From contig JAUCBJ010004292.1 in NCBI GenBank assembly GCA_032718475.1, positions 1 to 64,000 on the forward strand: a DNA stretch of 64,000 bases, given 5' to 3'. Positions 3,001 through 57,113 of this stretch are shown one piece after another. The DNA is from Nemertoderma westbladi. Lineage: Eukaryota > Animalia > Xenacoelomorpha. The stretch's first letter is position 1. Each line of letters begins with the position of its first letter. The position numbers and the translations under genes were made by a program. Under the pieces are notes generated by a model that was given only the letters and a program-made list of their open reading frames with translations, was not told the origin of the DNA and did no database searches.

Positions 3001-3902
3001 CACTCCCTCGCCAACTCTATCTCTTTCTCTAACAACGCAGTTTCCTCATCCAACTGCCTCTCTAATTCTTTCTGGTCTAGCGCCACCATGTCTAGTTGAC
3101 ACGCCAGATCTATCTCCAACACCCTTCTTGCTTTCGCAGAGGATGTAGTGGACTTATCGGTCGCGATGGACTCCCGTCGTCTCTCTGTCCTACTAACTTT
3201 CCCCCGCTTTCTGGGGTTCTCGCTAACTGATGAGACCGAATCCTCGGGGTTAACCTCGGGTTTGCCCTCATGCGGATCCGCCCAACCCACTAACTTAATT
3301 CCCCTGGCATCCACTAAATATGGCCCTATGTACACTACTTCAGGCTCCATAACCCCGGATCGCCACAGTTCGAATAGTTCGGTGGCGACACCCCTCGCTC
3401 TCTCACTCGCCAGTTCTCCCTGCCCAAAACGGAGCAGATACCAAAAATGTTTATTCGACTCACCTAGTCGTTGGTGTAACTTGGGCTGGTTTACCTTCTC
3501 TCCCTCTCTGTCCTCCTTTAACTGCTTCTTCGTGGCGTTGTAGGCCTGTCGAAGCCGATCTCTGGTCCCGACGTCCTCTTCGCCAACATCTCCTCCTCCT
3601 CTCCTGGTTCGGCGTCGTACCGGCGGCCCCACCATCGCCGTTCCGGTGGGCCGTCCTTCGCCCTCGGCCTGTGGCTGGCCGGCGACTTCGGTACTCCGAC
3701 CGCCATTGTGCGTCGACTCGTCCCTCTCTCGTGGTTGACGGCCGCCCTCCGCTTGGGGTACCGGATCGTCCCTCGTCGGCGAATCCGGCGTCGCAGGTCG
3801 ATACCGTCTCGTCGCGGCCTCGCGGATTGTTTGGTTGGTGTCGTCCGGGGTCCGCGGCCGCGTCCTCTCTCCCTCTGGATCTCGGGGCTCTCTATCACTC
3901 AT
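1..3902 (-). pseudogene. gag: BEL/Pao gag (coiled-coil N-terminus, Asn-rich linker, DUF1759-like capsid region), frameshifted
   Basis: Chain of ORFs 3902>2565, 2472>1978, 1959>1591, 1585>1022, 1047>643, 289>2. Joining frames gives PEEYLQFRRMY..LTQAECLKY/LQVYIGGPAYDIVRQY..GFTTAWRPLDREYGHP..ALPIWLRNK..EMSNFLNYEAEFITDPVYS, typical of BEL/Pao Gag. Several breaks lie near poly-C runs. Confidence 0.75.
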
Positions 3903-4361
3903 CTTTGCTTTATCTCTTCCTGGCAGTCACAGTTCGGTGGTTGGGAAATTGTATCACTGTGACGGGATCAAAGGATCCCGACCGGGTTGATTGTTTCGTA
4001 CGCGTCACCGCAGGCTGGGGTGTTACTGATTGTTTGGCCGAGGCCGTTAGAGAAAACTGAATTGAGTTAACGTTGTTGTTCAACAGTCTGATATGATATT
4101 GATGGCACAGTTGATATGATATTGTAAAAGCTTTTGCGGATATAACCAGTCATTTTCTCCGCAATATACCATATAGGTGTTTTAGCGGACATAACAAGCC
4201 ATTTCCCCCGCAATGCGCAGTATAGGTGCTTTAGCGGACATAACAAGCCATTTTTACCGCAATGCGCTTAATACTCTAAAGACTGGAACTCAGATGACGA
4301 AATCTGTCAGCTGATTTACTGTAAATGTGGAACATCTCTTTGTTCAGCTCGCTCAGCTCAG

Positions 4362-4373
4362 CCAATCAGAGCG
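4362..4373 (+). promoter_or_regulatory. CCAAT-box motif in LTR U3
   Basis: CCAATCAGAGCG is conserved in the otherwise divergent U3 of element B (23656-23667), 150-190 bp upstream of the inferred transcription start. Confidence 0.55.
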
Positions 4374-4550
4374 ATTTTCATTTTATCTTGTACAGAGGCC
4401 TACGGAAAACCGCGCAATGCATTACGGTCTTTGTTTTTTACCTTTCTGAGCGAGAGAACTGCTTGGAAATTCTTCTGTACTTCTGTGTTAGAAGTTTCAG
4501 ACTTTGACCTAAACATCAGAAACATCAGATGGCTTTGATTACAAGAATGT

Positions 4551-4561
4551 AAAACTATTAA
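4551..4561 (+). promoter_or_regulatory. Putative transcript 5' end / self-primer of element A
   Basis: AAAACTATTAA is the exact reverse complement of 5347-5357. Confidence 0.7.
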
Positions 4562-5346
4562 CTGAATCATACTTCATATCTGAATCACTGAAACAACGCG
4601 ATTCAACTACCGCATCACACCGCAATTCATGCATTGCTGCACATGGAACACTGCATAAGTAACACATACTGACTGTTCACCGCATTATTTGATTCTGTTA
4701 TAAATTGGTGTTATGTTGGTGTATATTGCTGATATATTTGGAGAATACCGATGAATAATCATAAAACCCCCAATCTTCTTGATTACTAAATGTTAGAGGA
4801 ACAGGTTTACCGGTAGCAACTGCGACTTACATTATAATGGTTTTTGCGTGAATTAAATGCTATTTCATGATCCCTACATGTGTCAGTTGCGATCCTCCTT
4901 ATATATGATCAAATTCAGTGACGGTCGGCAGATCAGTGTGCAGTAATGTGAAGTAGTGTGAAGTCGTGTGAAGTAGTGTGAAGGTTAATAAAGCATCTCC
5001 TAAAGAATGCGCTTTTTACGAAACTCAGTAGCCATCCAGTTGTGATTAGTATAAGTCATAACTCTGTTTTTATACTTAAAGCGCCACATCCTAAAGGAAC
5101 TGTTAATATTTCCCCGAAAGTAAATATATTGTCAGAGATTATATATTAACGATCAATCGAATAATACAGTAGGTCTACACTGCAATCACTATCAAAGCAT
5201 CCGAATCCAGTCTCCCTTAACTGTGGGTGAATGGTCGCGCACAGGCTGGCTTCGGCTGATGTACCTTCAGTACATTAAATAATTGATATACAAAAAGACA
5301 ATTAAAATTGGCAGGTTAAACTGCTAAAGTTCTAAAAGCGCGAACA

Positions 5347-5357
5347 TTAATAGTTTT
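5347..5357 (+). promoter_or_regulatory. Non-tRNA primer-binding site of element A
   Basis: TTAATAGTTTT directly abuts the LTR end, has no TGG, and is complementary to 4551-4561. Confidence 0.7.
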
Positions 5358-7323
5358 TAAACTCTTGATTGCACGTAGGCAATAAATATTTTGTCTATTG
5401 TTCTGGTAAGAACAATAATAGATTTTTGATTCTTTATTGCACCGTAGGCAATAAAGTCGAAGGTACCGGTCGAACGGTAAGCTGTAGGCCTAACTGCCCG
5501 AACCGGTACTTACAGGTACAGCAGTATTATTCGATTTTTATAATTATATACCGGTAGGTCTTGATATTTAATCAGGGACTGCAGCCCTGGTTTTTTTATT
5601 GGGATTTTACTTATTTCTGTCAGTTTTATTTATCTGTAAGTAATATTGAGCAGAAGGTGTGTAAGCCTGCTCAGATTGTATAAATAATTTGTAGGCTGGA
5701 TTGTTGTCTGACTGTTGTTGGGTCTGAAGAGATTGCAGTGTGTGTAGAGTGTATGTCCGATAAAGTACTAGTTAGGAAGGTGGGGGCATCCAGTGCTATA
5801 AGGTAAATCCCCCCCCCCCCACCCCCCGAAAGAATAAGTTGTACTACTCGGTTAGAACGCCTACTAACTAACCATTTCGGAGTCTGCATATACTGTAGTT
5901 TATTGAGGCTTGATAGTAGTCTGCCAACGTTTGGTCTGTATTTTGTTTGTGTAGTCTGCACGGGTAGCGTAATATTTATTATTCAGAGTCTATGCGAGTA
6001 TTCGCAACCTACATAACTCCCCAAGTTTATTCCTACAGTAATTGTGCTTGTTATACATACCGTTATAGTTAAATTAACCCCGGTACTACATCAGGGCTGC
6101 TTGGCATAGGTAAAGACTGGTGATTTTATGCTCTAGTCACTCCAGCAGATACCGTGGTTCTTTTAGCTGTACAAGTATATTTAACTGCTGGTTATTTGTT
6201 GTATAAGTACTTGTACCTAATTTAGGGTTTAGTGTACAGTGCTTTCCGAAGGTAATTAGTGTGTAGGCAGTATATTTGTGTTGTAAAGTGGTTAATAGGC
6301 ACGTTAGCTCTGGTTGGCTGCGGTAATTAACTTCTAGGTAAGGACACTCCAGGTACATAACGTAGTACTTATAGAGCTGTAGAGCTAAAGACTATAAGTC
6401 GTCAGATGGTGGTATTTTCTTATCTGGACAACGCAATATATATACTACTGCTTTATTATTTTCAAATACCGTAGTATCCTGTCCGTTTGTAAGAACCAGA
6501 AATTCTAACTCATTGTTAGGCTGGTTTGTAGATTTCCTGTAAAATTACCCTAAAATTTGTACGTGTAACTTTTGTGTTTATTTAGAGATTGTAATCTCAC
6601 ACTATATGTATGTAATTTGTAGTAATAAGTAACTTAGTAAAGTAGAATAATTTGTATTAGTGTCCAACAAGTAGCACTCCACTGAGAGCTTCCAGCTTCT
6701 GTGTAGTGACTCCTTACCCAGAAATAATAATATTTATTTCAAACATTGACAAAAACCCATTATACGGGTATATATATATTATAAATCAACTCAAACCGAT
6801 TTATAAAATAGTAGGCCTGTTATCCATCAATTAGGTCTTAATATCAGTTGGACTACTGCTTAATAACAGTAATAAAGTAAAGAAAAGTAACCCTAAAATT
6901 CAGAAATTCAGTTATTATAAAATAATTGACATACCGGTATTTACGATAGGCTTATTATATTTATTTCTATAAATTTATGCTGAAATTATATACCGGTATT
7001 CTGTAATTAATTCTAGTCCATAATCATACTTATATATACTATAAGTGTATGCTGTATACCGGTATTTATAGTAGGCTCATTATATATACTTATATAAATT
7101 TATGCTGAAATTATATACTGGTATTCTGTGACAAACCCTAGTCTGTAATAATACTTATATATATACTACAAGTGTATACCGGTATTCTAATATATTGTAT
7201 ATATATCACGTTACACTGAGTAACTGTATCGGTAATTAATTACTAGGCTTACAGTTGTTACTGAATTACTAGATTTGCTTTAACTGTCGTTATAGTAGTA
7301 GGCATTCAACTGTACAATCAAAC

Positions 7324-10300
7324 ATGGCTGACACAAAGCAAACTCTGTCAGATAGTCTCCTAGAAAGAACAGTCTGCGACTCCGACAGGAGTGCCGAACA
7401 TTTGAGACCTAAGTCCAAGTCCCCTCCTACTGTAAGAAAGGTCATCCCTCCAGTAGTAGTATCAGATCCTAGGCTAGTAAAGCACCGTAGGTCTATCATA
7501 GGCACTCGGGCTCAAGTCAAGCGGGACCAAGAGGCAGCTGTTAAACAGCAGCAGCACCCGAACCGAGAACTTATTTCTCAGCGGCCCGATAACTCCAGTA
7601 GTTCAGACACTGTAGAGTTGACACCCGAGCGCGGAGCAAAGATGGCAGAAGCAGTTTATTCGGATCCACTTCTCATTCTTCCTGAAGCCGTACTCACTAG
7701 AGTATTGATTGCGGTGGAGGAACATCAAATCGATTGGGCGAGAAGTAAGCGATCGACCAAGGACAGTTATGCGGGATACACGAAGGAGGAACTGAAGTCT
7801 ATTGTCGAGACGCAATGGAACTTCCCCGGACCCGGACTCCCGTTTAACTTATCGGAAGCTGCCTGGGAGGACTTATACAGGATGGGAGTGGTAAAGGACA
7901 CTAGAGATCCAGCTGTGTGGAAGAGGTCGGCAGCCGGATATGTACAGGGATTCTTCAGCTCTTTGGAGCGATTAGAGGAACAACTGTTCCAACAACCCCA
8001 GGGACCTCAAGAGCAGGGAGAGCTGCTTTATCAAGTTCGAGAACGAATCCTAAGAATCAGACTAATCCTTTCAGCCTTTGAGGAAGCCTCGAAGAGAAGC
8101 CAAGACACGTCGTTGCAAGTCGCCGTAAAGACTTGGTTCCAACAGGTGAGTCTTAAAGTCCAAGGAACAACCCAATGGAAAATTCAGCTAACTGAGCGCT
8201 CAACCCACAGAGAATCAACAGACGCTACCTTTTCTCAGGTGGAAAGTGAAGCGACATCAGAAAAACCTCAGAAGAAGGACGCCATTGACATCTATCTGTC
8301 GGACTATCAATGATTTATAGGTGACAAAGAGTTAAGGAGACGGCTAGCTGGACTTCACCCTAATAGTGAGGGAGCCAAATTTGTGCTAGACTCGTTAGAT
8401 GCGGAAAGGTTAGCAGCGGATCGAACTAAATTTGATGAAAGAATCCGCATAGTTAGGGTCCAAGAGGGCAGCTAAAGAAAAGGCAGATAGAAGACAGAAA
8501 GGCAGCGGCATCAGCGGCGGCAGAAGCTGAAAGAAAAGCGGCAGCGGCGGCGGCAGAAGTTGAAAGAAAAGCGGCAGCTGCATCGGCAGAAGCGGAAAGA
8601 AAAGCGGCAGCTGCAGCGGCAGAAGTGGAAAGAAAAGCGGCAACTGCAGCGGCAGAAGCGGAAAGAAAAGCGGCAGAGGCAGTGGCAGAAGCGGAACGGA
8701 GGGCATCTGAAGAGACTGCCCAACTAGAGTTGGAAAATCTTCAAGAGAAGCAAGATTACTTAAATAAACAGATACTAGTACTAGGATCGGCATGCTGCAT
8801 TGCAGCTGCATTTTTAAGAATGCTGTGCCGGCTTGTCAACAAAATTGCACCGCCACAACTCCCTATCACCCATGACATGTGCTAGATCATCCGCATCTTC
8901 AAGGCCAGTGTCCTTTAAGATACGTCTTAAGAAAGTCATGGGCTGTCCACCATGCTTATTCACTCCATGAGGCTGCCAAAGTACAAGATTATGCACTGGC
9001 TGGTCCTCATGGCAAAAGCAATGTCCTGCAAAGCGGAGGTGATTTTGTTCTAGTGTCAAGCTTGGGGGAACCAATGAGACACCTCTAATGTTATATAGTG
9101 TCTGGTTGGAGATGTGTGCATTGTACTTGACACAATGAACCCGGCGTAGCATTCTTGTGAATGTGCCATCCAGAGATTGGGTGTCCTCAGCAGTTAGAGC
9201 CCAGCATGGACTCCCGTAGAGGAGTACTGGAACTACTGCTGCTCTAAATAATCGGACCTTAAGTTTCCGATTAATTCTCGGTGACTTCCAAATCCTGGAA
9301 AGCCTATTAGGATATGCGTAGAACATAGTCAACCACAATAATGAACAAGAATGGTGCAAGTGTGTCTCCTTGGAGGACGCCCCATATCACTTCAAATGGT
9401 TCTGTGTCACTGTCAACAGTAGACACAAATGTTGTCGAACCATCGTATACTGATCTGATTGCTGCAATAATTTCATCAGGAATCTCATATAAAATGAAAG
9501 TATGCTGAACATATGTGAGCGAGAGACTGAATCAAAGGCCTTGAAGAAGTCAACAAAGATAACAGCCAGATGCCTGTCTTTCTTTTTTGATAACTCTTCA
9601 ATTATCCTTCTAAGTGCCAAAATGGGCTCCATGGTCCCACGACCTTTACGGAACCCATTCTGATTTCCACGTAGCAGTCTCTCAATGGGATCCCTGATGC
9701 GATTTAATAGAATTCTATTGTATAGTTTTGCAGCAATCGAGATCAATGAGATTCCCCGAAAAGAACCATAGAGTGTTAGGTTGCCCTTCTTGGGAACTGG
9801 CACCAACTTATTTGTTTTCATTTCTTGTGGGACTCTTGTTGTACGGTACATGTCTACTATGATGGGATAGATGAGCTTTAAACACTCAGGTATTTTAAAA
9901 ACCTCAGGGGGAACACCATCTACTCCACTGGCGCGATTGGTCTTAATGGTCTTTGCAGCAGCCTTCACTTCTGCAAAGGAGATATCGCCAATGGGAATAT
10001 CTGGGAGTACAGACTCAGACACTTTTACTTCTATAAAGTTATCAGGCAATACCCTGTCATTATTGAGGTGCTTTTCAAAGTGGGCTTTCCAACCATTGAG
10101 GCGATCGGCTGGTGATTCAGCCTTAACCTTGGTGGTTGGTTGGCTTTTCCGCACAGTAAGCAAATTGATCGATTTCCATGCCTGGGATGATTGCCTGCTG
10201 TTGTCAGCATCATTGATGGCATCAACCTGTTGGTTTATTAGCTCCTGTAGATTAACAGAGTACTGCCTGTTCAGGGACCTAGATGCAGCCTTAACTGCAT

Positions 10301-11835
10301 TCTTGGCCGCTGTAGTCTGTTTGAGTCGGGACTCTTTCTGCGCCTTATGAAGGTCATTTCGACACTTCTGAATTTTGTTGTCAGTCCAGGGGGCCCTTTT
10401 CCTGTTTCGAGGGTATACAGGAACTGTTTCTGCAGCTGCTAACTTAACTGCTTCTGTAAAGGCAGTATAGCCCTCACAGTGATCTGCCGCCTCAGAGGCA
10501 AGAGCCTCATACCTGTTGCTCAGCTGTAGTGTGAAGCTGGATCTCACACTTGGCTGTTGCAACAGAGAGGACCAGTCATGCCGCGGCAAGGCAGATTTCG
10601 TTGTTCTGCTAGCACGCAGACTAAGTCTTACCTTGGCCACAATAAGGCGGTGATCACTGGAGAAGGATCGAAGTGTAAATGCATTACAGTCTTGTATAGA
10701 GCTCCTGTATTTCCTACGAAACAGAATATGGTCTATCTGGGACTTGTGACCACTGGGTCCACTATGAGTCCATAGCTTTCCAGTTCGCTTCTTGAACTGG
10801 GTTCCAGCCGAAAACAATCCATTTCCAGAGATAAAATCCTGAAGATGGACAGAATTTCGGTTAACACTCTTGCTATAGACCCAGGGCGATGTAGGTGATT
10901 GATGCAGACTTGCATTAAAGTCTCCCAGGAATGTTAAGAATGCATGCTGATCCACTCCATCAGTAGCTGCTTGTAGATTGTGGTAGAAATTTTCCACCTC
11001 CTCTACAGCTAGTCAGATGCAGATTATAAGTCGATCTACTCCCAAGAGACAGGGATTTACATCATCTGATGAAGGCAATACAACAGATCCTGAAGGCGGA
11101 GGAAATAGATCTCGTTCCAACAGACGTAGAAGAACTCCCCACCGTCAGAAATTGCCTAATTTGCCCCCAGCTGTGAGAAGGCAACTAGCTAGTGTACACT
11201 TAGGTAGTACAGAGCACACAGACCAAATTATTAGAGTAGAAAGACTCCCTACTATAGTAGATGAGCCTGAAATAATTGGGCCTGTGCTCGAAGCCACCCC
11301 TTCTGTGATAGAGACACCTGTACTTCCAGAACCTAACTCTAAATTCCCTTTGCACAGTACTAAACTACCTGTGCCCAGTAGAATAGCACCAGAATCAGTC
11401 CCAGTCTTGGACGCCGAGCGAGACATCAACGATTTATCGCCCGTCGTCCCTCGTCTACCCGCTACTATGTTGGCGGCTCCCGCTTCGGCGGTCGAGTGGG
11501 TGGATGAGGGACGGCGGGGGATGGATCTCCTGCTTGGACAATTGGAGGAACAGCGCTTGCGTTCCTCCCAGCAGGTCCGAGAGATGGAAGGGACTGTTCA
11601 ACAGTTAAAGCGAACAGTAAGAGAAGGTAGGTTAGAGTTGCAAGAAGTGCAGCAGAGTATCGCGTTAGAACGCGATAAATTAGTAAATATACAAAGGGAT
11701 ATACCACCACCCCCTGTAACAATGTGTCAACCTGTCAATGTGCCAACCAAATATCGATAACTCGATATTAAATAATACGATGGCTCAAGAAAGTTTTACG
11801 CGTCAAATGGCTAGAACCGAAGCCCGTCAAGCGGT
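7324..11835 (+). pseudogene. gag: gag of element A (stop codon, LINE insertion, capsid and zinc-knuckle region deleted)
   Basis: Collinear with element B gag; premature TGA at 8311-8313; AAAEAERK coiled-coil repeats; RTE insert at 8775-11004; jumps from RTEARQAV directly to the pre-protease region at ~11835. Confidence 0.9.
8775..11004 (-). mobile_element. 5'-truncated, internally deleted RTE-clade LINE inserted in gag of element A
   Basis: APE C-terminus (LGDFNA, QIDHIL, SDHRL), RT motifs (QNGFRKGR, FVDFFKAFDSV, QGDTLAP), RTE C-terminus (LRFAGHC..LVLWQP..DRELW). The xADD core is missing at ~9310. Gag rejoins as ATA|ACAGCTAGT with no clear TSD. Confidence 0.9.
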
Positions 11836-11838
11836 TAT

Positions 11839-13241
11839 ATGACAAACACCGCGGTGTATCGAGCGCTTACGTATGAGACTGAAACCGATAACGAAGCGCA
11901 CCCGACTATTCCCGACCGACAACCATCTTGGAAAGCGCCAACTTCCAACATCGGAATCTGGGAATTCCCCGTAGTTCAGCTGAGAGTCCATGGATCAGGT
12001 AAGAGTTTTATAGTCAACGCCCTCCTGGACTCCGGCAGCACAGGAACATTCATCGACAATGAACTAGCCGAAGACATCTTTGCTGGACAACCCAAGTTCC
12101 GAACTAAGTTGAACCTTTCAGGAATTATGCAGGTTTGGAAATCCACAGTAGCTACAGACTACTATGTAGGAGCGTTGTCCACTCCCCAGGACGAACTAGG
12201 AGAACATAGCATAAGGTCAGTAAAAATGGTGGCGATAAAGAACTTTGCTACCAGCCAAGTGGAACCTTACAACTGGGATGAAGACGATTTTACCCAGCAG
12301 CATGATATCCCTAGATTCAAACCGACTACCCAGGAGTACAGATACTCATCGGCCAAAATGCGCATGAGGCGCTAGAGACATTAGAAAAACGGCCTGCTCG
12401 ACCGCAACCATTACAAACATATGCGGGAAGAACGAGAGTAGGTTGGTACTTCACTGGACCTTCCCGTAGAACACTCATGGAAAGATTACCTAACGACCAA
12501 GTACATCAGGTGAGTGAATGGGAAGAAGAAATCAGTGAGGGAGAGAACACAACTGAGGGAACACCACACTCCTCAGAAAATGACGATATTAACTCTAATG
12601 TAGATCAATGGAGACATTGCCCTGGGACGATTAATCCAGCCGACATCGCTTCCAGAGGAGCAACTCCTCAAGAACTGATAGATACTCCAGACTGGTTAGG
12701 TGGACCCGACTTCCTAAGTAAAGAAGAGGATGAATGGCCTCCTCATCTCACCACGGCTGAGATTAGACAAGCCAAGGGAGCGGAGAAAGTCAAACCTAAA
12801 ACCCGGACGAGTAAATCAAAGTTATTTAAACCCGTGATTGATCTGTCTGTACTACACATTTCAGGGGACGACGCTATGGGTCTAAACTCCCCCGCCACAA
12901 ATAAATCTGTCGTGGAAATTAGAGAAAGGGACTGTAAATCTGGAACACCAGACGTCTCGCAGGGACTCTCACCTCTCCTGCAGAGAGCTATAAATCACTA
13001 TAGCTCCTGGAATCGGCTTTGTAAGGCCGTCGTGTATTTGAAGCGATGTTTCCATCGTCACTATTCCAGGACAAAGAAGAAACCTGGAATTGTATTCGAA
13101 ACACAACAACTCAATCGCCCAGTTGGTCGTTTATGTTTACTGGAAAGTGACCGAGAACTATCCGGAAACTATGGAAGGCAAGATACTCTTCCCACGACCA
13201 CCTCCCTAATCCAACAAACATCTAGGGACTCCCCAACGTAA
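11839..13241 (+). pseudogene. pol: pol remnant of element A: aspartic protease plus short RNase H-end and integrase-tail fragments
   Basis: ALLDSGSTGTFI, then QWRHCPGTINPADIASRG, YSSWNRLCKAVVYL and LNRPVGRLCLL; frameshift near 12320; no YVDD or DDE domains. Confidence 0.88.
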
Positions 13242-14952
13242 CAGCGTCTGGAGTGGGTGTGTGATTATGTTATTTTATATTTGTTTTTATTATTTTTATA
13301 TTTACGTATGTATTATTATGTAATTTTATTATAATCGTTTTCTTTAATTTTATTTAGCAGAATGTTATTTTAGCGATTATTTAGTAGATTAGTGCAATAT
13401 ATACTCGTGTTTATTACTTAATTACTTATATTATATATATAGTGCAACGGCGAGAAATAATTCTTTTTTCTCTTTCCTTACTGTCCGTATCATATTATAA
13501 ATGCGTGACTACAGTAAGATGAAATATCCGTACTTATTAAAGTACAATAAAGCTCCTACTATACTCAAGTATTATTGGTAAGTAGAGTATTGGGAATGCA
13601 AAGTTCAGATCCTCGTGTCTCGGCTAAACCAAGCTCTGGGTAGACCTTGGAAACGACTTGCCTCTTCTCACTGACATTGCTTCTTGCAATATTGCTCTCA
13701 TACCGTATATTAAATAATACATATAGTAGAGTGATGTCCCTTTAACAGTAGCGTAAAACGCAAAATAAATCTGTTAAACCCTTTGACCAGCTGCCATTCT
13801 AGTCGATTAAGATATCGCGGCACCCACCGATATACTTGAAAGACAAAATTCTAGAATCAGTGGTTAACGTCCCCAGACAAGTTCTGGAATAAATCGGTGC
13901 CCATCTTAAATATTAAATATTTAATAAATAATTGTAAAATCTGTCAAAACAAATATAATAGAGTAAATGCTTACAAGTTAACTCTAGAAAATCTATAAAT
14001 CAAAATCTGTTAAAATTTAGATCCTTTAAAATTCTAGTCGATTAAGATATCATAGCACTTACCGATACTCTTAAAAAGACAAATTTTCTAGAATTAAGGA
14101 TCCTAGTCCCCAGACATGTTCTGGAATAAAATTGGTCTATTTTAATATTAAATAATAAAATTTACGGGAATAAATTTAAATTCACATCCTCTCATGAATT
14201 TGATAAATTGTCATTTTATACAATTTATAACATTCCCAAAATTCCATTAATTAATAGATCATGGGAGCGGAGATTCACCCTATTAAGTATATTAGTGTGA
14301 GAGAATCTCCAATATATAGTCAATAGCCGATAAAATTCATAAAATCATGTATAAAGGGGAATATTGACAATTAAAGAATTATTATTAAATAGCATCCCAG
14401 ATCTGTATGCATGAGAATTACCCTAATTGTACTGCTAGCTTTCCATAATGTCACCATGGCAACAACCACGCTAGAATTAGAAGTGAGTTAAAAGAACAAT
14501 AAAAAGCTTGCCCCATTGAATAGCATACGGAATAAATAGCGCACTGCTAGTATCCAGGGATACATAATAATAACGTGGCATTCTGGAAGGCACTTGACTA
14601 ACGGACAAATGGCCCGAATGTGTACAATTTGTGACAGTTGTGTGGAATTTGTGCGTTTATAGGTGAATGTTACTACTAAAGTGTGTTTACCGTAGCGAGT
14701 CACAGTTGTGAAAGTAGCCCTACCTCTGTAGTAAGAACCTGAAGTAAATCAAAGCCCTTGGGACGGACAGTGGAGTGACTCGCGCTGGTTGTTGTTGTCG
14801 TTGTGTAGCTACTATATTGGCGATAGACACAGCGGCGACAGTACATCAGCGCTGAGGAGCTTGCGCTGTCCGGGGGCATTGAGGGGGAGGCAGCAACGAC
14901 CGCTAGCCTAAATTATAATTAATTATAATATCGATAAACTCATATAGCAGCT

Positions 14953-16506
14953 ATGACTGAGTTGATAGAAGATGATCTTGGTATCAGGGAGCGATATACC
15001 CTACCATTGCAAGCGTTTGTTGATAGTTTAATACGCGGCGACGCTAGTCCACCCACTACGGAGGACGATGGCCGTTATATCGAACCGCCAATGTCAAAGG
15101 AACAGCTCACGCGTGAATTGGACTATAGAAAATTCACCGTTCGCTATACGCATCGTAATGGTACGTATATAGACTTCTTTACTACTGGCCATCCTATCGA
15201 TTTACACGATATGGACGCTGTAGACACCGAAAGGGAAATGATCCTATTTAAATATCATACCCAGCGGAGTCGGAACGATAAACTGAGAATCGAACACGAA
15301 AATTCTATTCGAAACCAACTCGAAAGAGAAGACGTTAAAGAACCGGATAAACGCAGTGACTTCAACGTATATTTGGAATTCTTGAGAAAGACATTGTAAA
15401 ACTGGAGAAAGATCACCAGCGTTTCCCCTACAAGACGTGCGTCTTTGGTATTATTACGATGAATGCCCTAGACCCAACCAACACACGGAAAGACATAAAT
15501 ATCCACGGAGACGTTGCGTTAAACACAGTTTTACTCGCTATATTTACGGGAGTTTCGAGCGAAACTTGTTCGACGTATCACCTACGCTCGCTCGACTCAA
15601 ACGATCCTTAAATAAACCGACGATCAGAGTTCCGGAATACTCGGTCAGACCTCCTCATTCCCTGGTGAGACCTCAGACTCTTGATCCTAATAGTATGATG
15701 GATCCTCCTGAGTTGTATTCATTGTTCAAAGATCTAGTGTTACCCGAGCAATTAGCCGGTGGCACTCCGGTTGTGGGCTCCCTAGATATTTGCCCATCCT
15801 ACCTAGCCGGATTGGGACGCGGACATTTAATATCGCCGTTCAATCCGTATAATCGTCCCGGTTTAACCCCGATACAACTTGTCACCGAGGTGGAGGAGAG
15901 AGTTGTACGAAATGCGTTAGACACTATTCAACTAAAGATCAGAAAAGGAACCTATGATTGTTTAGAGAAACGTAAATTGCAGCAGCAAGTCCAAGCGGTA
16001 AACGAATTAGCTTTATCTCAATTCGATCGGGAAATCCAGAATCTCTAAGAAGATATCGAACTTGGACGACCCTACTCTCCGAAAGAGTTTTGGATGAATG
16101 TTTCCAACGACCAGCGGAGGAAAATCAGCTCAAGGAGAAGCATATCGATTTCGACAGAGCCCGAGAACGCGAGTCGGAAAGAACCATCAAACCGAGGAAA
16201 TTTCTCACTACACATGGTCCACCTACCGCTCTCGTGCAGACGATTTGTCAGGGACCAGTAAGAGCTGTTGTCTTGAAACGTGCTCTGAAGGTTGTTCAAC
16301 CTCGCTCCACTGAGGTTGATACCGGTCGGCCGGGTACCTCGACCGGCGTATACACCGACCGTAACCCTAAACCTTCTGATGCAATTGTATTGCACCCTTC
16401 ACCTAGGAGTTATAGCCCTCCTAGTAAAGTGGCTCGCCCCAAAGAGAAAAGGACTCTTGCTAGCCTCCAAAAACTGCGTAAACGCCGTTTGCGTAAGAAG
16501 GACTAA
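14953..16506 (+). pseudogene. Extra 3' ORF region (ORF3) of element A, unknown function
   Basis: Three consecutive ORF pieces homologous to 33367-34888; ends KLRKRRLRKKD about 70 bp before the PPT. Confidence 0.7.
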
Positions 16507-16576
16507 CTGTTTAGAGTATTTTTATATTTTAGAAACTGTGATTTTTTATATTTTATAGAATTAAATCTCATTTTCT

Positions 16577-16584
16577 GGGAGCGG
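16577..16584 (+). promoter_or_regulatory. Polypurine tract of element A
   Basis: GGGAGCGG immediately 5' of the 3' LTR; identical in element B (34959-34966). Confidence 0.8.
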
Positions 16585-17748
16585 TGTAAAAGCTTTTGCG
16601 GATATAACCAGTCATTTTCTCCGCAATATACCGTGTAGGTGCTTTAGCGGACATAACAAGCCATTTTACCGCAATGCGCTTAATACTCTAAAGACTGGAA
16701 CTCAGATGACGAAATCTGTCAGCTGATTTACTGTAAACGTGGAACATCTCTTTGTTCAGCTCGCTCAGCTCAGCCAATCAGAGCGATTTTCATTTTATCT
16801 TGTACAGAGGCCTACGGAAAACCGCGCAATGCATTACGGTCTTTGTTTTTTACCTTTCTGAGCGAGAGAACTGCTTGGAAATTCTTCTGTACTTCTGTGT
16901 TAGAAGTTTCAGACTTTGACCTAAACATCAGAAACATCAGATGGCTTTGATTACAAGAACGTAAAACTATTAACTGAATCATACTTCATATCTGAATCAC
17001 TGAAACAAAGCGATTCAACTACCGCATCACACCGCAATTCATGCATTGCTGCACATGGAACACTGCATAAGTAACACATACTGACTGTTCACCGCATTAT
17101 TTGATTCTGTTATAAATTGGTGTTATGTTGGTGTATATTGCTGATATATTTGGAGAATACCGATAAATAATCATAAAACCCCCAATCTTCTTGATTACTA
17201 AAGGTTAGAGGAACAGGTTTACCGGTAGCAACTGCGACTTACATTATAATGGTTTTTGCGTGAATTAAATGCTATTTCATGATCCCTACATGTGTCAGTT
17301 GCGATCCTCCTTATATATGATCAAATTCAGTGACGGTCGGCAGATCAGTGTGCAGTAGTGTGAAGTCGTGTGAAGTAGTGTGAAGGTTAATAAAGCATCT
17401 CCTAAAGAATGCGCTTTTTACGAAACTCAGTAGCCATCCAGTTGTGATTAGTATAAGTCATAACTCTGTTTTTATACTTAAAGCGCCACGTCCTAAAGGA
17501 ACTGTTAATATTTCCCCGAAAGTAAATATATTGTCAGAGATTATATATTAACGATCAATCGAATAATACAGTAGGTCTACACTGCAATCGCTATCAAAGC
17601 ATTCGAATCCAGTCTCCCTTAACTGTGGGTGAATGGTCGTGCACAGGCTGGCTTCGGCTGATGTACCTTCAGTACATTAAATAATTGATATACAAAAAGA
17701 CAATTCAAATTGGCAGGTTAAACTGCTAAAGGTCTAAAAGCGCGAACA
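16585..17748 (+). repeat. 3' LTR of element A (1164 bp)
   Basis: Direct repeat of 4123-5346, followed by TSD GATAT. Confidence 0.95.
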
Positions 17749-18259
17749 GATATATTCACAATAGCGGATAACAGTATTGATACCGGTAATAGTAACTGAA
17801 CAGCCAATGTTGTTGATGGTGATGGTGACGGTGAAACAATATCGCCCGTCTGCACTGAAACTGATAACTGAGTAAACTGATTGATAAACCGGTAGCAAGT
17901 AGATAATATACGACACACCAATATTACTTCACTGCTACATTACTTTGGCCTCTTACCTAGTGGATGCTCTCCCTCGCCCTTATTGGCTAATAACCTACTT
18001 CACGCCTCTCCACTCTCTGGGAGTGTTTCCCCCTTGTTGCTAGCCCCTGCTAGCTGTCTCCCCTTCCGAGGTGGTTTGACCTCTAACCTCCCTTTGTGTG
18101 TGGCTTTGGGGTTTGCTGTTGGTTGTGATACGAGATTTGTTACTGCTAATCTCGTATCTCCAACATATTGCTGAAAATGCCACTATCCTATTTTATGAGG
18201 GTAATTCGGCGGAATTGAATCCGCTTACATTTATAAAATAAAATGTTTGCAAATTTATC

Positions 18260-18615
18260 TTATTATTTAATAATTAACATTTATTCTCAATGGCCCTTCT
18301 TTTTTTTACAGAATTTTGGTTATTTAATAATTAACATTTATTCTCAATGGCCTTTCTTTTTTTTTTTACAGAATATTGGTTATTTTATAATTAACATTTA
18401 TTCCCAATGGCCCTTCTTTTTTTTTTTTTTTTTTACAGAATATTGGTTATTTAATAATTAACATTTATTCCCAATGGCCTTTCTTTTTTTTTTTACAGAA
18501 TATTGGTTATTTAATAATTAACATTTATTCTCAATGGCCTTTCTTTCTTTTTTTTTTTTACAGAATATTGGTTATTTAATAATTAACATTTATTCTCAAT
18601 GACTCTTCTTTTTTA
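18260..18615. repeat. ~60-bp AT-rich tandem repeat, about 6 copies, variable poly-T
   Basis: Unit TTATTTAATAATTAACATTTATTCTCAATGGCC(T)nACAGAATATTGG. Confidence 0.9.
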
Positions 18616-19739
18616 TTCGATTTGATGTAACCCTTTTCTGTTATTTGATCCATTTGAGGAGTTTACTCAAAGAAAGGTTAATGAAATATAATTAACATTC
18701 AATCGGGTCTCATCTTTAGGTAAATTTATATTTATTTTTAGGTAAATTACTTGCTAGGGTGACACAGTTCTATTTCAAGGGGTTGGTGGAACAGGAGTTT
18801 TATAGCCCCGAATGACATTAAAAAGATGTTGTAATGGATGTAGTGTAGACTTGTAATGGATCATTGTGACGCCCTTAAGTCGGCCTGCCACTACCTTAAA
18901 CAGTTCTATTTGGCCTACACCCAGCCAAAGGGGTAGGTGGGGGGGGGGGGGGGGGGTTGCAAAAATTAAATATATAAATATAATTGTAAGGAAACCAAGA
19001 TCAACCACGTTAAATAAAAATTATAAGAAATTACACAAGCTTTCGAAATAATATAATATTTCTTTTTCAAGTGATTTAAATAATTAAATAAATAAAATGT
19101 ATATATATATTATGTTTATGAGTTTGTTGCGAATAAAAGATATAATAATTATTAATACTCAATGCCTTCGATGTCCTTGTATAATTCCGTGGACGCAATT
19201 CTAATCCGCCCCCTCCAGGGGAAAATCGACGCAAATAACAGCTGATTAATCTCAAAAATAAAACTGTAATGTCTTCTATAGATAGTAGTTTATTGTTTAG
19301 GTTATAATAACATGCGACTGTAACCTGCTACTTTCCCTTAACCCTTTCCGGCCGACTGTATATTTTTGTATACACTGAATTTATTTCACTACGAATTGCA
19401 TAATTTTAACTAATTATAGTTGGTTTCATCCAATTGTGGCACTATCACACTTCCTTTACTTATAAATTACCGATTCTGATTGGATAATTGTAGTAGAAGG
19501 CTTCAATGAACGATTTTAGATGCCGTGTTTTCAGGTATTGACATGATGACTACCTGGTATAGGAAAGATGGTTATTTAAACGCTTTGGCAAAGCGATATT
19601 GAGAATTTTGATTGGGTATTCCAAAGATGGATTGTCCAATGAGATAATAATACTTCCAGGATAAACTTTACAGTACATGTAGGCTGGTAGTGTTATTGAT
19701 AAATCACTGTATACATTTGTCTACGTTAGGTTTATAAAG

Positions 19740-20622
19740 TTGGGGAGTAGAAGTGGTGCAGCCACAGTTGTGGAGTAGATGTGGTGCAGCACCGTTGGGG
19801 AGTAGATATGATTCAGCCACCGTTTGGGTGATGTGGTGCATCCACCATTGGGGTGTAGGCCTAGATGTGGTGCAGCCACCATAGGGGAGTCGATGTTGAC
19901 CATTGGGGTGTAGATGTGGCGCAGCCACCATGGGGAGTAGATGTTGACCATAGGGTAGTAGAGGTGATGCAGCCACCATTGTGGATAGATGTGGTGCAGT
20001 CACCATTGTGGAGTAGATGTGGCGTAGAACCATAGGGGAGTAGATGTTGACCATTGGGCCTTGGGAGTAGAAGTGATGCAGCCACTATTGGGGAGTAGAT
20101 GTGGCGCAGTCACTATTGGGCCTTGGGAGTAGATGTAATGCAGCCACAATGGGGAGTAGATGTGGCGCAGTCACCATTGGGGAGTAAATCTAGCACACCC
20201 ACCATTAGGGAGTAGATGTGATGCAGCCACTATTTGGGAGTAGATGTGGCGCAGTCACCATTGGGCCTTGGGAGTAGATCTGATGCAGCCACTAATGGGG
20301 AGTAGATGTGTCGCAGTCACCATTGGGGAGTAAATCTGGCGCACCCACCATTGATAAGTAGATGTGGTGCAGCCACCATTGGGGAGTAGATGCTGACCAT
20401 TGATGAGTAGATGTGGTGCAGCCACCATAGTGGAGTAGATGCTGACCATTGATGAGTAGATGTGGTGTAGCGACCAATGGAGTAAATGTTGACCATTGGG
20501 GAGTAGATGTGGTGTAGCCACCATATGGAGTAGATGTTTACCATTGGGCCTTGGGAGTAGATGTGATTCAGCCACCATTGGGGAGTAGATGTGGTGCAGC
20601 CACCGTTGGGGAGTAGATGTTG
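19740..20622. repeat. Degenerate ~22-35-bp minisatellite
   Basis: Core GGGGAGTAGATGTGGTGCAGCCACCATT repeated about 30 times with variants. Confidence 0.9.
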
Positions 20623-21647
20623 TACACCCACAGTATACAGGCAGGGCAGATAGACATACAAACAATTGAAAAAAGTCAGTCAATACTGTTTTTTTCAAAC
20701 TTGAACAAAACTGACAGAAAAAAACCTTCACTGTATAATTCTTCATTTTAAGTTTTTTGTCGCACTGTGTTACTTTTAAACAACGTGTGTTGTGAAAACA
20801 CACAAAATTATAAAATTTTGGCATTTTGGCAAATTTCACAGTATTGACAGCTTTTTATTACCAAAAAACATAATTTAAATTTTTATAATTAAAATTGCCT
20901 GCTCGTTGCATGCTTTGTTTATTCTACATATATATATATATATATAGAGAGAGAGAATATACTTACTATACGATTTATGTATGTAAGTACTTACAATCTA
21001 GAGTTCGTATACAAAAGTATACATTGGGAACATGTTTCATATACCTAACGTATACTTTTGTATACAATAAAAAAAAAACATTGGAAATAATTTTTTGAAA
21101 ATTTTTTCATCGAAAATTATTATTTGGTGTATAATTAACCCATTAACAAGACCCTGACCATAGGTCAGGTCAGGTCCCCAGATCCTGCTACCACTATGGC
21201 AGTAATGTGGTACTACCTGTAGCTGCCAGCCCAGTAGGGCAGGCCCGATAAGCATAGCCTATTCATTATTTAGTTGATCAAGAGTGGGTTGGTTCAGCCC
21301 CGTCAACTAAATAAGTCATTGAGGGCTATAGCGCCTAGGGCACCATTGAAGGCAAAGGCTTGATACGCATCTGCATTAGAGATGATACACGCCCCGCCCT
21401 GTCTATACTGGATGCTCCTCTACCAGTGTAGGTAACCTAACCCAGGAGGCACACTTGGTTCAGGGTGTAACAAAAGGACCCCTACAGTCAGCAGCAGGGC
21501 TGTAGGCCATAGATAGGCAGAAGGTAATCAACCAACGGCTAGACATGCTGACAAGGTCGGCGGAAGGTAATCAACCAACGGCGATCTACTGCGAAGACGC
21601 TTGTAGGAGTTGCGACCACAAGCGGTTTACTCCCGCAACTGAAAGAT

Positions 21648-23371
21648 TTGAGTATGAGAACCCTCCAGGAGAAATACCGGCTCGGTCGTCGCCCGGGTCA
21701 ACAAGGACCGCGTCCCCCAGTGGTACACCAGGCTGGGGTCGATAAATTGGCTACTGGAACAGAAGACCGAGAAGAAAGAAGAACCAACCTGTTGAAATGT
21801 AAAAAGACACTAAAGATTGCTACAATGAACGCACGCACGCTGAAAGCACATACCAAACAGGGTGACATGGTCACTCTGGCAATGGAGTATAACATCGACA
21901 TCATCTGCATCCAAGAACATCGGATTTGTCATGAAGACACTGCCATGAAGTACAATGACATTGGAAATGGATGGACGTTAGTAACAAGCTCAGCAGTAAG
22001 AAACTCGGCCAATGCATCAATTGGTGGAGTAGGAATTCTGCTAAGCCCATTTGCACTTAAGACCCTAAACAACATCGAATCTATAAATTCCAGGGTTATG
22101 ATCGCAACATTTGATGGGAATCCCAAGGCAACAGTTATATGTTGCTACAGTCCAACCAATGCCTCAGAGCCAGAACAAGCAGTCAAGTTTTATGAAGAAC
22201 TTACTGGACTTATAAAGGACATTCCGAAACACAATGTTAAAGTCATTGCTGGTGACCTGAATGCCCAAATTGGCCCAGAAGACATCAAGGGTTAAACCTA
22301 TAACACCAGTTCTAACAGAAATGGGTACTTACTTTTAGACCTAAAGGAAGAATGTGAATTGATACCAACAAACAACATTTTCGAAAAGAGTAAGGGGAAG
22401 CTATGGACCTTTCAATACCCTATTGGAACCAAAGCACAACCGGATTACATCCTTTTAAACAAAAAGTGGAGAAACAGCATGATCAACTGCGAGGCATACA
22501 GCTCGTTCAACCTAATTGGTTCGGACCACAGAATTGTGACTGCAGAGATCAGACTCAGTTTGAGAGCCAGCAAACCCAGGACAAGCAAGCAAATCAAATA
22601 TGACTGGGAAAAACTCATAACTGACAATGCTGTAAAGGATGCTTATACAGTAGAAGTTCAAAACCGCTTTGAAGCACTTCAGTCAATGGATGAAGACCAA
22701 TCCACCAATTCAATATACCAGAATATAATAACAGCCCACAAGGAATCAGCCAAGAGGCATATCCCCCAGAAACCCAAACGAAAACAATATGTGCCATGGC
22801 AAAACTCTGAGGTTACTTGTAAGAGAGAAGATCTTAAGATAGCCTACAAAGTTAAAACCGAACAACCAACAACCGAAAACATTAACAAGGTTGAGAAAGC
22901 AAAGGACGATCTTAAATTGGCCAGGAACATCAGCCAGGAAAAGTACATACAGGATAAAACTGAAGCAATTACAACTGCTCACATACAGCAACAATCAAGA
23001 CTTACCTGGCAAACTGTAAATGAGGTATCTGGTCGGAAAAGTTGTGCAAAGGGGCGCCTCAAAGCCGATAGTCCTGAAGAACGTGTTGGGAAGTGGAAAA
23101 ATCACTTCAGCAAGTTGCTTGGGCAGCCACCAAACATCGAGGTCAGCCCTACAAGGAAAATATATGACAAGACACTACCTATAGAAACAGGGGACTTCAC
23201 ACCTGCCGAACTCCAAAGAAGCATTAAAAGCATGTCCAATAATAAAGCGAGTGGATTAGATGAAATCCCAGCGGAGGTATGGAAAACCGGAGTGCTAAAC
23301 AGACCATTATTGAATGTTTGCAACCGGATGTTAAAAGGGGAAAAGCCACCACCAATTTGGACTAAAGGTGA
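21648..23371 (+). pseudogene. RTE ORF 5' part: APE endonuclease and linker
   Basis: IATMNARTL, CIQEHR, GGVGILL, YSPTN, AGDLNA, PDYIL, SDHRIV, KASGLDEIPAE; in-frame stop at 22293-22295. Confidence 0.9.
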
Positions 23372-24549
23372 TGTAAAAGCTTTTGCGTCATTAACCGGTT
23401 ATTTTCCCTTAAAGTACTCTGTAGTTGGTTTGCCGGGCATAAAAAGGCCGTGTCCTTGCTGTACTGGTGTTTTAGAGGACATAAAAGTCATTTCTTCTGT
23501 ATTTGTACTGTATTTGTACTTTAGAGGACATAATCCGCAATCTCGTGACGCGATAAGCTGGATACTCTTGAAAACAGTGTCGCTACCATGACGACGGCTA
23601 ACAGCGTGCCACGTCGACGTTTCTTTGTTTCTTTGTTCTCTCGTTGTTCGGTTGACCAATCAGAGCGTTTTTTGTCTCTGTGTTGGAGGTGTATACAGAA
23701 CTCAGTAATTCAGTGTTATGTTTTTGCCCAGAGCCTAAGAACACCGGCTTTTGGCATCTCCGTATATCAACATTCTTTAGCTTTACATTAGTAGGCTTAA
23801 TTATAGAACGTATATCTGTTATCTTAACTAATCATACAAAATCAAACCCTACTTACTTATCATACATATCTATGCAATTCATATCTTGCATTACTGCTTT
23901 GCTGTTGGTTATTCGTTATATTTGTTGATGAATTATTATATCGGAATACTGATCAATAGTCAGACACCCCACCTTCTTGATATACTAAAGGTTAGAGAGA
24001 CCGGTTACAGATAAACGATTGCGACCTATGTTGAGTGGTTTGAAGTGAATCTAATGCTATTTCATATGCCCAACATAAATTGTCTGTTGCTCTCTTTATA
24101 CGTGACTAAATTTAGTGAAGGTCGGCAGATTAGTGTGCAGTATTGTGCAGCATTGTGTATGATTGTAACTGATAACAAAGCATCTCCTAAAGAATGCGCC
24201 ATATACATTAATCTATAGCCTTTTCGTTGTGACTAGTTTAAGTCATAACTCTGTTTACATATTTAGAGCGCCACGTCCTAAAGGAACTGTTAATATTTCC
24301 TGAAAGTGAATAATATTTGTCAGAGATTATATATTACGATCAGTCGAATAATACAGTAGGCTTACACCATCAATCATTAAGCTCCGAACTCAGTCTCCCG
24401 GGTATATCCAACGGGTGAATGATTGCGCATAGACTGGCTTCGGCTAATGTAGTGTATCAAATACTCGTCATAAGCTAAAGAATATATATCATCCAAAAGA
24501 CATTCTAATTTGGCAGGTTAAACTGTCAAAGGTCTTAAAAGCGCAAACA
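23372..24549 (+). repeat. 5' LTR of element B (1178 bp)
   Basis: TGTAAAAGCTTTT...AAAAGCGCAAACA. Confidence 0.95.
23812..23822 (+). promoter_or_regulatory. Putative transcript 5' end / self-primer of element B
   Basis: ATATCTGTTAT is the exact reverse complement of 24550-24560 and follows AGAACGT, as in element A's 3' LTR. Confidence 0.7.
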
Positions 24550-24560
24550 ATAACAGATAT
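24550..24560 (+). promoter_or_regulatory. Non-tRNA primer-binding site of element B
   Basis: ATAACAGATAT abuts the LTR end, has no TGG, and is complementary to 23812-23822. Confidence 0.7.
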
Positions 24561-26735
24561 TGCTTCTGGATTGCGGTGTAAGCAATCCAGTCTAAAGTAC
24601 CGGTACCGGTTGAACGGTAACCTGTACTGCTGTAGGCCTGTAGGCCCAACTGCCCGAACCGGTACTTACGGTACAGGTACATCAGTATTATTCGATTTTG
24701 ATAATTATATACCGGTAGGCCTTAATAATTAATCAGGGACGGCCGCCCTGGTTTTTTATTGAGATTTTACTTGTTTCTGTCAAGTTTTATTTATTTGCAG
24801 GCCAGTATTGAGCAGAAGGCGTGTAAGCCTGCTCAGATTGTACAGATAATTTGTAGGCTTGACTGTTGGCTGGCTAGCTGTTGATTAGGTCTGAACGGAT
24901 TGCAGTGCATGTAGAGTGTATGTCCAATAAAGAACGGTTAGGAAGTAGGGGCAGCCATCGCTGTAAGGTAAACCCCCATCTAAAGAATAAGTCGTACTAC
25001 TGGGTTAGAACGCATACTACTTAACCATTTTGGAGTCTGCATGTCCTGTGGTTTATTTAGGCTTGATAGGAGTCCGCCAGCGTTCGGTCTGTACTTTGTT
25101 TGTGTAGTCTGTACGGGTAGCGTATAATTTTATTTAGATAACTTGTAGGCTGGATAGTTGTCTGGCTGTTGTTGGGTTTGAGGAAATTTCGGTGTGTGCA
25201 AAGCATCTGTCCGATAAAGAACGGTTAGGAAGTAGGGGCAGCCATCGCTGTAAGGTAAACCCACATCTAAAGAATAAGTCGTACTACTGGGTTAGAACGC
25301 ATACTACTTAATCATTTCGGAGTCTGCATATACCGTAGTTTGTTTAGGCTTGATAGTAGTCTGTCAGTATTTAGTCTGCATTTTGTTTGAATGGTTTGTA
25401 CGCGTAGCGTAATATTTATTATTCAGAGTTTATGCTATTATTCGCAACATTCATTCCCCAAGTTTGTTCCTACAGTAATTGTGTTTGTTATACATACCGT
25501 TATAGTTAAACTAACCCCGGTACTACACGGGCTGCTTGGCGTAGGTAAAGACTGGTGATTTTGTGCACCGGTCACTCCGGCAGATACCGTGGTTCTTTTG
25601 GCTGTTCAAGTATTTTTAACTACTAATTATTTGTTGTACAAGTACTTGTACCTAATTTAGGGTTTAGTGTACAGTGCTTTCCGAAAGCAATTAGTGTGTA
25701 GCCAGTGTATTTGTGTTGTAAAGTGGTTGATAGGCACGTACGTTAGCTCTATTAACTTCTAGGTAGGGACACTCCGTGATACATAACGTAGTACCTATAG
25801 CGATACGGTTATAGGTCGTCAGGCGGTGGTATTTTCCTATCTGGACAGCGCAGTATATTTACTACTACTTATTATTTTCAAATACCGTAGTAACCTGTCC
25901 ATTGTAATAACCAGATATTCTAACCCTTTGTTAGGCTGGTTAGTAGACTTCTTGTAAAATTACCCTAAAAATTTGTATTTGTGTATTTGTAATTAAATTT
26001 TTGTGTTTATTTAGAGATTGTAATGTCAACCCGAATTGTACGTAATTTGTAGTATTAAGTAACTTAGGTAAATTAGAATTATTTGTTTTAGTGTCCAACA
26101 AGTAGCACTCCACTGAGAGCGCACAGCTTATGTGTAGTGACTCCCCCAGAAATAATAACATTTATTTCAAACATTGACAAAACCCATTAAACGGGTATAT
26201 ATATATTATAAATCAACTCAAACGATTTATAAATAGTAGGCCTGCCATACAACAATTAGGTCTCAATATCAGTTGGACTACTGCTTAAATAACGGTAATA
26301 AAGTAAGTTAAAGTAACCAAGTAACCTTAAAATTCAGAAATTCAATTATTTAAAATAATTGATATACCGGTATCCACGATAGGCCTATTATATATTTATA
26401 TTTGTACTGAAATCATACCGGTATTCTGTAATTAATTCTAGTTAATAATTATACTTATATATCCTATAAGTGTAAACTGTATACCGGTATCCACGATAGG
26501 CCTATTATATATTTATATATATTTGTGCTAAAATTATATACCGGTTTCTGTGAAAAACCTAGTCTGTAATAATACTTATATATACTATAAGCATACCGGT
26601 ATTCTAAAATATTATATATATCACGCTACACTGAGTAGCAGTATCGGTAATTAATTACTAGGCTAGCAGTTAAGGCTGAATTACTAGACTTGCTTAGACT
26701 GTAATATAGCAGTAGGCTTAACTGTGTAAACAAAC

Positions 26736-29700: not shown

Positions 29701-29796
29701 CCGGAAAACAAGGTAAGTGAAAAACCCGTCGCTAGGAGAAAGGTAACACCAGTGTGTTATACAGCGGGAAAGACACTGACCGCGCTTATTACGTAA
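26736..29796 (+). pseudogene. gag: gag of element B (N-terminal extension, coiled coil, DUF1759-like capsid)
   Basis: ATG at 26736 homologous to element A's start, frameshift near 26780, then 984 open codons including KFNGDEMKWLPF, LSNGEKLRFLIECLEGSP, WDTLNIRYGN, LMSFLDGE. Confidence 0.9.
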
Positions 29797-34888: not shown

Positions 34889-34966
34889 CTGTTTAGAGTA
34901 TTTTTATATTTTAGAAACTGTGATTTGTTATATTTTATAGACTTAAATCCCATTTTCTGGGAGCGG

Positions 34967-45180: not shown

Positions 45181-45417
45181 TGTCAGATAGGCACCCCGCG
45201 GTACCGGTAGTGCGTCAAGTGCGGTAGTGTTACTGCTGTAATGTGTGTGGGGTGGTGTGTGGGTACCGGTATACCAAAATCATACACGAATGTCTAACAA
45301 CAAGTGGAATCTCTGTAAGTAATTAATTGTATTATGTAATTTTAATTTACAGAAAGTGACTTATGAATCATTGGATGGTTTGTAACCTAAATGCAATGGG
45401 AGTGATCCTGGTATAAA

Positions 45418-57075: not shown

Positions 57076-57113
<38 letters not shown>

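Follow-up and report, generated by a model that had tools for sequence, protein, structure and literature searches.

Young non-autonomous BEL/Pao elements of Nemertoderma westbladi likely prime minus-strand DNA with their own RNA

Tf1/sushi retrotransposons, among them Tf1, Tf2, Tj1 and Tosmo, have no tRNA site; the sequence just past their 5' long terminal repeat (LTR) pairs with RNA encoded in the LTR, and the primer of Tf1 is 11 nucleotides (nt) long. Cer elements of C. elegans, for their part, reportedly encode tRNA-like primers of their own. Self-priming is described for the Tf1/sushi group (PMC4600332) and predicted for Tcn1 and for the TAR lineage of copia elements, represented by Houba and Osr-1 (PMC6317226). 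In the profile of the International Committee on Taxonomy of Viruses (ICTV), the BEL/Pao elements (Belpaoviridae) are 4.2-10 kb long and carry an 18-nt primer site for tRNA-Arg or tRNA-Gly, and their replication is tRNA-primed and poorly understood (PMC8742986). Here, we analyse two BEL/Pao elements, A and B, in a window of 64,000 nt of Nemertoderma westbladi DNA (assembly GCA_032718475.1, contig JAUCBJ010004292.1, positions 1-64,000, forward strand; "the window" is this whole stretch). An earlier sequence-only reading had proposed that they prime themselves in the manner of Tf1, a mechanism that it knew from Tf1/sushi alone; that is where it has been described, but the statement is incomplete, since the prediction in the copia TAR lineage means that self-priming is not limited to Tf1/sushi and that more than one origin is already predicted.

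The two elements, their LTRs and the sequences involved in the putative priming are as follows.

4123-17748, forward strand: element A, a full-length LTR element, with the target duplication GATAT at 4118-4122 and 17749-17753
4123-5346, forward strand: 5' LTR of A, 1224 base pairs (bp), TG...CA, differing from the 3' LTR by 12 substitutions and 3 gaps
4551-4561, forward strand: candidate self-primer 11-mer of A, with a predicted cut just 3' of 4561
5347-5357, forward strand: primer-binding site of A, abutting the terminal CA of the LTR and without TGG
16585-17748, forward strand: 3' LTR of A, holding a copy of the 11-mer at 16963-16973
23372-36149, forward strand: element B, a full-length LTR element with the 5-bp target duplication GGTGA, sitting in a long interspersed nuclear element (LINE)
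23372-24549, forward strand: 5' LTR of B, 1178 bp, differing from the 3' LTR by 5 substitutions and 1 gap
23812-23822, forward strand: candidate self-primer 11-mer of B
24550-24560, forward strand: primer-binding site of B, abutting the terminal CA of the LTR and without TGG
34967-36149, forward strand: 3' LTR of B, holding a copy of the 11-mer at 35412-35422

The few substitutions between the LTRs of each pair (12 in A, 5 in B) indicate that both insertions are young. The 11 nt that follow the 5' LTR pair perfectly with the 11-mer inside it, 4551-4561 with 5347-5357 in A and 23812-23822 with 24550-24560 in B, exactly where the sequence-only reading had placed the duplexes. Its finer description holds as well: the duplex is exactly 11 bp in both elements and has its site adjoining the terminal CA; the two 11-mers share alignment columns, after AGAA[C/T]GT; and they differ at 4 of 11 positions, every change being compensated by a Watson-Crick pair. 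A primer-binding site starting with TGG is absent, the first TGG lying 58 nt (A) and 18 nt (B) past the LTR. Each 11-mer has three matches in the window, the two LTRs and, reversed, the primer site, a number reached by 0 of 100 shuffles. A complement of at least 11 nt anchored at the first post-LTR base arose in 32 (A) and 33 (B) of 20,000 dinucleotide shuffles of the LTR, and among the real internal start positions, primer site included, 9 of 11,198 in A and 2 of 10,377 in B reach 11 nt. The covariation is likewise concentrated: 21 helices of at least 8 bp can form in both elements at aligned columns, and the primer duplex alone carries four two-sided changes, two others carrying one each. 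The sequence pattern behind the predictions for copia TAR and Tcn1, a part of the LTR that complements 10 nt or more beginning 0-5 nt past the 5' LTR (PMC6317226), is also present in A and B. The duplex energy, -7.5 (A) and -10.5 (B) kcal/mol, exceeds what it costs to open the primer site, 3.3 kcal/mol in A and 0.8 kcal/mol in B, a comparison that covers opening on the side of the site alone. In the contigs of sequencing run X1 (share 0.11), neither 11-mer is covered, which makes them uninformative there, and no GT..AG joint was seen; one contig, with a loose end behind 5350, shows a third variant of the primer site with no TGG in the 30 letters seen, its LTR partner lying outside the view.

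A scan of prokaryote assemblies, seeded with marine-invertebrate-type proteins, gave 15 BEL/Pao loci (L002-L016). The assemblies are titled as bacterial genomes, and the loci are likely animal host DNA left in them. The junction of 5' LTR and leader was readable in seven (L003-L006, L009, L010 and L014), the matches of which to complete Pao polyproteins extend along most of their length, and the rest (L002, L007, L008, L011, L012, L013, L015 and L016) were dropped before counting as unreadable at that point. None of the seven has a TGG at offsets 0-8, and six have a perfect self-complement of 11-12 nt, equalled per locus by 0-14 of 1,500 random internal positions. In L005, as in A and B, the complement is contiguous, whereas in L003, L004, L006, L010 and L014 (and, loosely, L009) it is built across a GTRAG...YAG splice junction within the LTR. 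The primers of L003, L004 and L006 consist of 3 nt of the first exon and 8 nt of the next, and L003 and L004 differ there by two matched changes, both in the exon-1 part, that preserve the pairing. No such intron, with its junction pairing to the site, was found in A or B (0 GTRAG donors in the three LTRs examined). In a four-domain tree of 69 sequences with midpoint root, from which A, with two of the four domains, was left out, B falls in a large clade with all the relative loci and apart from named insect proteins (SH-like support 0.94). The exon-joint letters of L010 recur in the 3' LTR of L011 (about 11300-11950), where the donor reads GTAAGT instead of GTGAGT and the intron has diverged; the primer site of L011 itself is unreadable. 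Scans of viral contigs found no relative; a pattern scan of metagenomes gave one match, in bacterial DNA, which we put down to chance.

Priming in Tf1 needs three duplexes, the primer on its site and two arms in which sequences adjacent to the site pair with the LTR downstream of the primer (bioRxiv 10.1101/2022.12.06.519325). An RNAalifold prediction from A and B together gave both flanking arms unprompted and left the primer site unpaired.

5155-5167 with 5524-5536, forward strand: predicted U5-leader helix of A, 13 bp, P 0.95-0.97, no two-sided change
24343-24354 with 24685-24696, forward strand: predicted U5-leader helix of B, P 0.98
5173-5188 with leader 5366-5380, forward strand: predicted 3' pretzel arm of A, one two-sided and one one-sided change relative to B
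24360-24375 with 24569-24583, forward strand: predicted 3' pretzel arm of B, P 0.89
5232-5240 with LTR end 5338-5346, forward strand: predicted 5' pretzel arm of A, one two-sided change relative to B
24420-24428 with 24541-24549, forward strand: predicted 5' pretzel arm of B, P 0.94 for 24423-24428
5308-5327, forward strand: conserved hairpin near the LTR end of A, two one-sided changes relative to B

The U5-leader helix (12-13 bp, P 0.95-0.98), without any two-sided change between A and B, encloses the domain. All 21 named pairs are kept in both elements, with two two-sided and three one-sided changes, and slid controls gave 0. In predictions for each element alone, B has both arms (P 0.89-0.94); in A, the 3' arm is present and the 5' arm gives way to a local alternative. 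The two further duplexes of the Tf1 pretzel are thus predicted here from two sequences. The 3' pretzel arm has a competitor in a hairpin just 3' of the primer site (5432-5456 and 24566-24590), of which A has two copies; it could possibly be a switch between priming and translation or packaging states.

The elements that carry this signature belong to BEL/Pao, as the sequence-only reading had it: PF05380, the Pao family, is present in 16 of 16 homologs in a search among longer proteins, and the gag frame of B matches the Pfam domain DUF1759 (E 1.2e-10). A profile built from 34 full-length Pao polyproteins matches B with E 3e-55 and 2e-27; its matches take in gag (in B only), the protease and, over a short distance, the C-terminal end of the RNase H region.

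11956-12803, forward strand: broken protease region of A, followed directly by a C-terminal remnant of the RNase H region
26782-29796, forward strand: gag frame of B with DUF1759, the capsid region of Pao-type elements
29736-31715, forward strand: frame of B with zinc knuckles, an aspartic protease and a C-terminal remnant of the RNase H region

Neither A nor B has anything that matches profile positions 683-1227 or those past 1343; the reverse transcriptase (RT), the RNase H core and the integrase are therefore missing, a lack that the sequence-only reading did not mention, and the elements are non-autonomous BEL/Pao derivatives. An RT phylogeny is consequently impossible, and any cutting and copying needs a helper in trans. 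The best matches among representative proteins have about 26-51% identity over the matched stretches, so no autonomous partner was found. Like other Belpaoviridae, A and B are animal-type elements with TG...CA LTRs of about 1.2 kb, a Pao-type gag and protease and a 5-bp target duplication; they differ in having no TGG within 17 nt of either LTR and hence no 18-nt site for tRNA-Arg or tRNA-Gly, in their length of 12.8-13.6 kb, in the absence of RT and integrase and in a weak polypurine tract. With Tf1/sushi they share the 11-nt primer length, the site just past the 5' LTR and, as a prediction, the three-duplex pretzel, but their proteins are BEL/Pao rather than those of Ty3/gypsy chromoviruses, their primer lies 727-785 nt from the site, and they have no RT and RNase H of their own; the likeness is one of the mode of working and not of membership. 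The evidence for copia TAR and Tcn1 is of the same kind as ours, the TAR elements differing in superfamily and in their hosts, which are plants.

Taken together, the exact and covarying duplex, the missing tRNA-type site, the predicted arms and the self-complement in six of seven readable relatives make self-priming likely in A and B, and the explanation that we favour overall, with reasonably good confidence, is that these young non-autonomous elements prime minus-strand DNA with their own RNA and not with a tRNA. In the mechanism that we propose, the two flanking helices would hold the primer site open and the 11-mer would dock on it across them as a pseudoknot. Gag would package the RNA with the Pol of a helper, the RT/RNase H of which would cut just 3' of the 11-mer, at 4561/4562 in A and 23822/23823 in B, and so provide a 3'-OH. 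With an RNA that probably starts upstream, the primer would form the 3' terminus of a longer 5' piece, unlike in Tf1; minus-strand strong-stop DNA would measure about 785 nt (A) or 727 nt (B), and its transfer to the 3' LTR would restore the part that was cut off. When the plus strand is made, the primer would be copied into a new primer site and the match between the two sides preserved, which would account for the full compensation. More tentatively, and with the balance of our judgement tipping slightly the other way, a large invertebrate clade of BEL/Pao may have dropped tRNA priming and turned to a primer of a third kind, a long 5' fragment that is cut from the element's own RNA and pairs only through about 11 nt at its 3' end; some families would build this primer by splicing and others carry it ready-made, with A and B representing a lineage in which it has moved about 750 nt upstream and which depends wholly on helper enzymes.

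Several observations weigh against self-priming of this form. The least comfortable part of the mechanism is the long distance between primer and site, 785 nt in A and 727 nt in B as against 44-153 nt in the relatives; the three A/B LTRs offer no GTRAG donor that could shorten it, and the primer duplexes are AU-rich. The covariation of A and B rests on two sequences, and the two-row shuffle control of the predicted arms fell short of significance (132 of 500). In an unconstrained nested fold, the probability of the primer duplex is near 0 for A and B alike, which is not decisive because the duplex crosses the U5-leader helix and such programs cannot model crossing. Among the relatives, L009 misses the strict test (8 nt, 133 of 1,500), with 10 of 11 pairs formed across its junction; for L010 and L014, the LTR end is inferred, and the offset of L014 is 8 nt; L003 and L004, which come from a single assembly, are sisters; the choice of junction model and offsets was made after the data were seen; and the set contains no tRNA-primed BEL/Pao control. 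The closer placement of B within the tree is weak (0.31, 0.75).

The sequence-only reading had transcription begin at the first A of the 11-mer, downstream of a conserved CCAAT box.

4362-4373, forward strand: CCAAT box in the 5' LTR of A, also present in B, at -189 relative to the 11-mer
23656-23667, forward strand: CCAAT box in the 5' LTR of B, at -156 relative to the 11-mer

The box is indeed common to the two elements, but its spacing to the 11-mer differs and both positions are farther away than the -60 to -100 usual for CCAAT. If the RNA began at the 11-mer and its first 11 nt were the primer, as in the strict Tf1 type, the sharp limit of the duplex at 11 bp, set in both elements by a T.T mismatch, would be natural, as would the contiguity of the 11-mer, the T|A step, which suits a pyrimidine-purine start, and the generally higher conservation of the LTR downstream of the 11-mer. 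Yet positions -45 to -1 hold no TATA-like motif or conserved core promoter in A or B and little conservation of any kind, and relatives with exon-joint primers also give 11-12 bp, so that a length of 11 bp is no marker of an RNA 5' end. In three of these relatives, the primer starts 220 nt (L003), 215 nt (L004) and 221 nt (L006) past a TATA box and spans two exons, so that these primers cannot represent the RNA's first 11 nt. The proposed start is thus doubtful, and we think that the primer is internal in A and B as well and that their transcription probably begins upstream of the 11-mer, perhaps by 100-135 nt; about 50-55 nt past the CCAAT box, both elements have motifs that we take to be initiator-like. 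Additional pairing upstream of the 11-mer, a sign of an earlier RNA start, was not significant in either element (p 0.12 and 0.37) nor over sets of elements (Fisher p 0.07 for nine elements, 0.19 for A and B), and for this reason a start at the 11-mer, though rather unlikely, keeps a real minority chance.

The pairing could be real but regulatory or structural, serving site masking, dimerisation or packaging, while a tRNA fragment, a small RNA or a helper RNA acts as the primer; the region is rich in conserved structure, and half-tRNA primers without TGG exist in copia (PMC6317226). We regard this as unlikely: the site differs at 4 of 11 positions between A and B and widely among the relatives, so that one host RNA cannot match all, neither ARAGORN nor Rfam found a tRNA gene or RNA family in the elements, and within the window, the LTR copies are the only complements of the site. 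Less probable still is a primer formed by the 3' end of a transcript or by a piece of an excised LTR intron, in which case the GT just before the 11-mer would be the donor and CAG|GT, conserved 32-33 nt short of the LTR end, the acceptor. AGAA[C/T]|GT does resemble the donor of L006, and GGCAG|GTTAAAC the acceptors of L003, L004 and L006, but the A and B donors are not GTRAG while all six spliced relatives have GTRAGT, and the acceptor, which sits in a hairpin, has a tract with 6-7 pyrimidines of 21 in A, poor beside 11 in B and 11-16 in the relatives. The resulting junction would pair with neither primer site, and there is no poly(A) signal near the 11-mer. As a look for a duplicated or relic splice context, GT plus the 11-mer was compared with the site near the LTR end: it scores 10 of 13 in A, the best of all positions, and 8 of 13 in B, where four positions score higher. 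Chance complementarity, finally, gains something from LTRs that are long and AT-rich and from the eight other internal positions in A and one in B that reach 11 nt, but is scarcely credible given a chance of about 0.0016 per element, the exact site, the homologous columns, four compensated changes and the like pattern in six of seven relatives. As an observation in its own right, the sequence before the 11-mers (4540-4550 and 23801-23811), with its likeness to the L006 donor, and the hairpin at the LTR end (5308-5327 and 24510-24529), with its likeness to the L003, L004 and L006 acceptors, are possibly relics of an ancestral LTR intron; the resemblance may also be due to chance.

Self-priming thus remains our preferred reading, with a sequence signature that is real and well supported and that most likely reflects self-priming in a superfamily described as tRNA-primed. 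We found no report of it for BEL/Pao in titles and the openings of abstracts, Repbase, GyDB and most subscription papers being beyond the reach of the search. Term look-ups found no mention of a primer-binding site or priming in PMC554778, PMC3118150 and PMC6238403, and the accessible portions of PMC8220671 and PMC3601003 mention the primer site in general terms only. If true, BEL/Pao would be the third predicted origin of self-priming after the Tf1/sushi gypsy elements and copia TAR, and a primer from inside the transcript would depart from the rule in Tf1, where the 5' end of the RNA serves as primer. Silencing by tRNA fragments would presumably not reach self-primed elements, and LTR finders that demand a tRNA site would miss or downgrade them. 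As the model names exact RNA ends (4561/4562 and 23822/23823) and strong-stop lengths, it is directly testable.

The window contains further traces of the history of these elements. In the place of the integrase, both have a broken extra reading frame, at about 14940-16100 in A and 33350-34400 in B, with a DNA identity of about 87-88%; it has no significant Pfam match and no homolog among longer proteins, and a captured gene and an env-like remnant are candidate readings. The gag region of A is interrupted by another element:

8775-11004 (limits approximate), reverse strand: LINE fragment with endonuclease and RT, a gap in the A/B alignment, with Pfam matches to RVT_1 and Exo_endo_phos

Element A itself is inserted into the 5' region of an older, third BEL/Pao remnant on the reverse strand (179-4122 and about 17749-18230; gag match E 5e-16). 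No perfect self-complement of at least 9 nt was found at any candidate LTR end of this remnant; at one candidate end near 3957, itself unverified, a stretch on the LTR side pairs at 9 of 10 positions by eye. Many tandem arrays lie within 18237-20647 and 44314-63980, with units of about 16, 17, 28, 31, 38-43, 50, 60 and 68-71 nt, the largest array occupying 54180 and beyond. The LINE that hosts B (21552-37472, forward strand) is split by it, and its RT frame at 36261-37472 is open for 403 codons.

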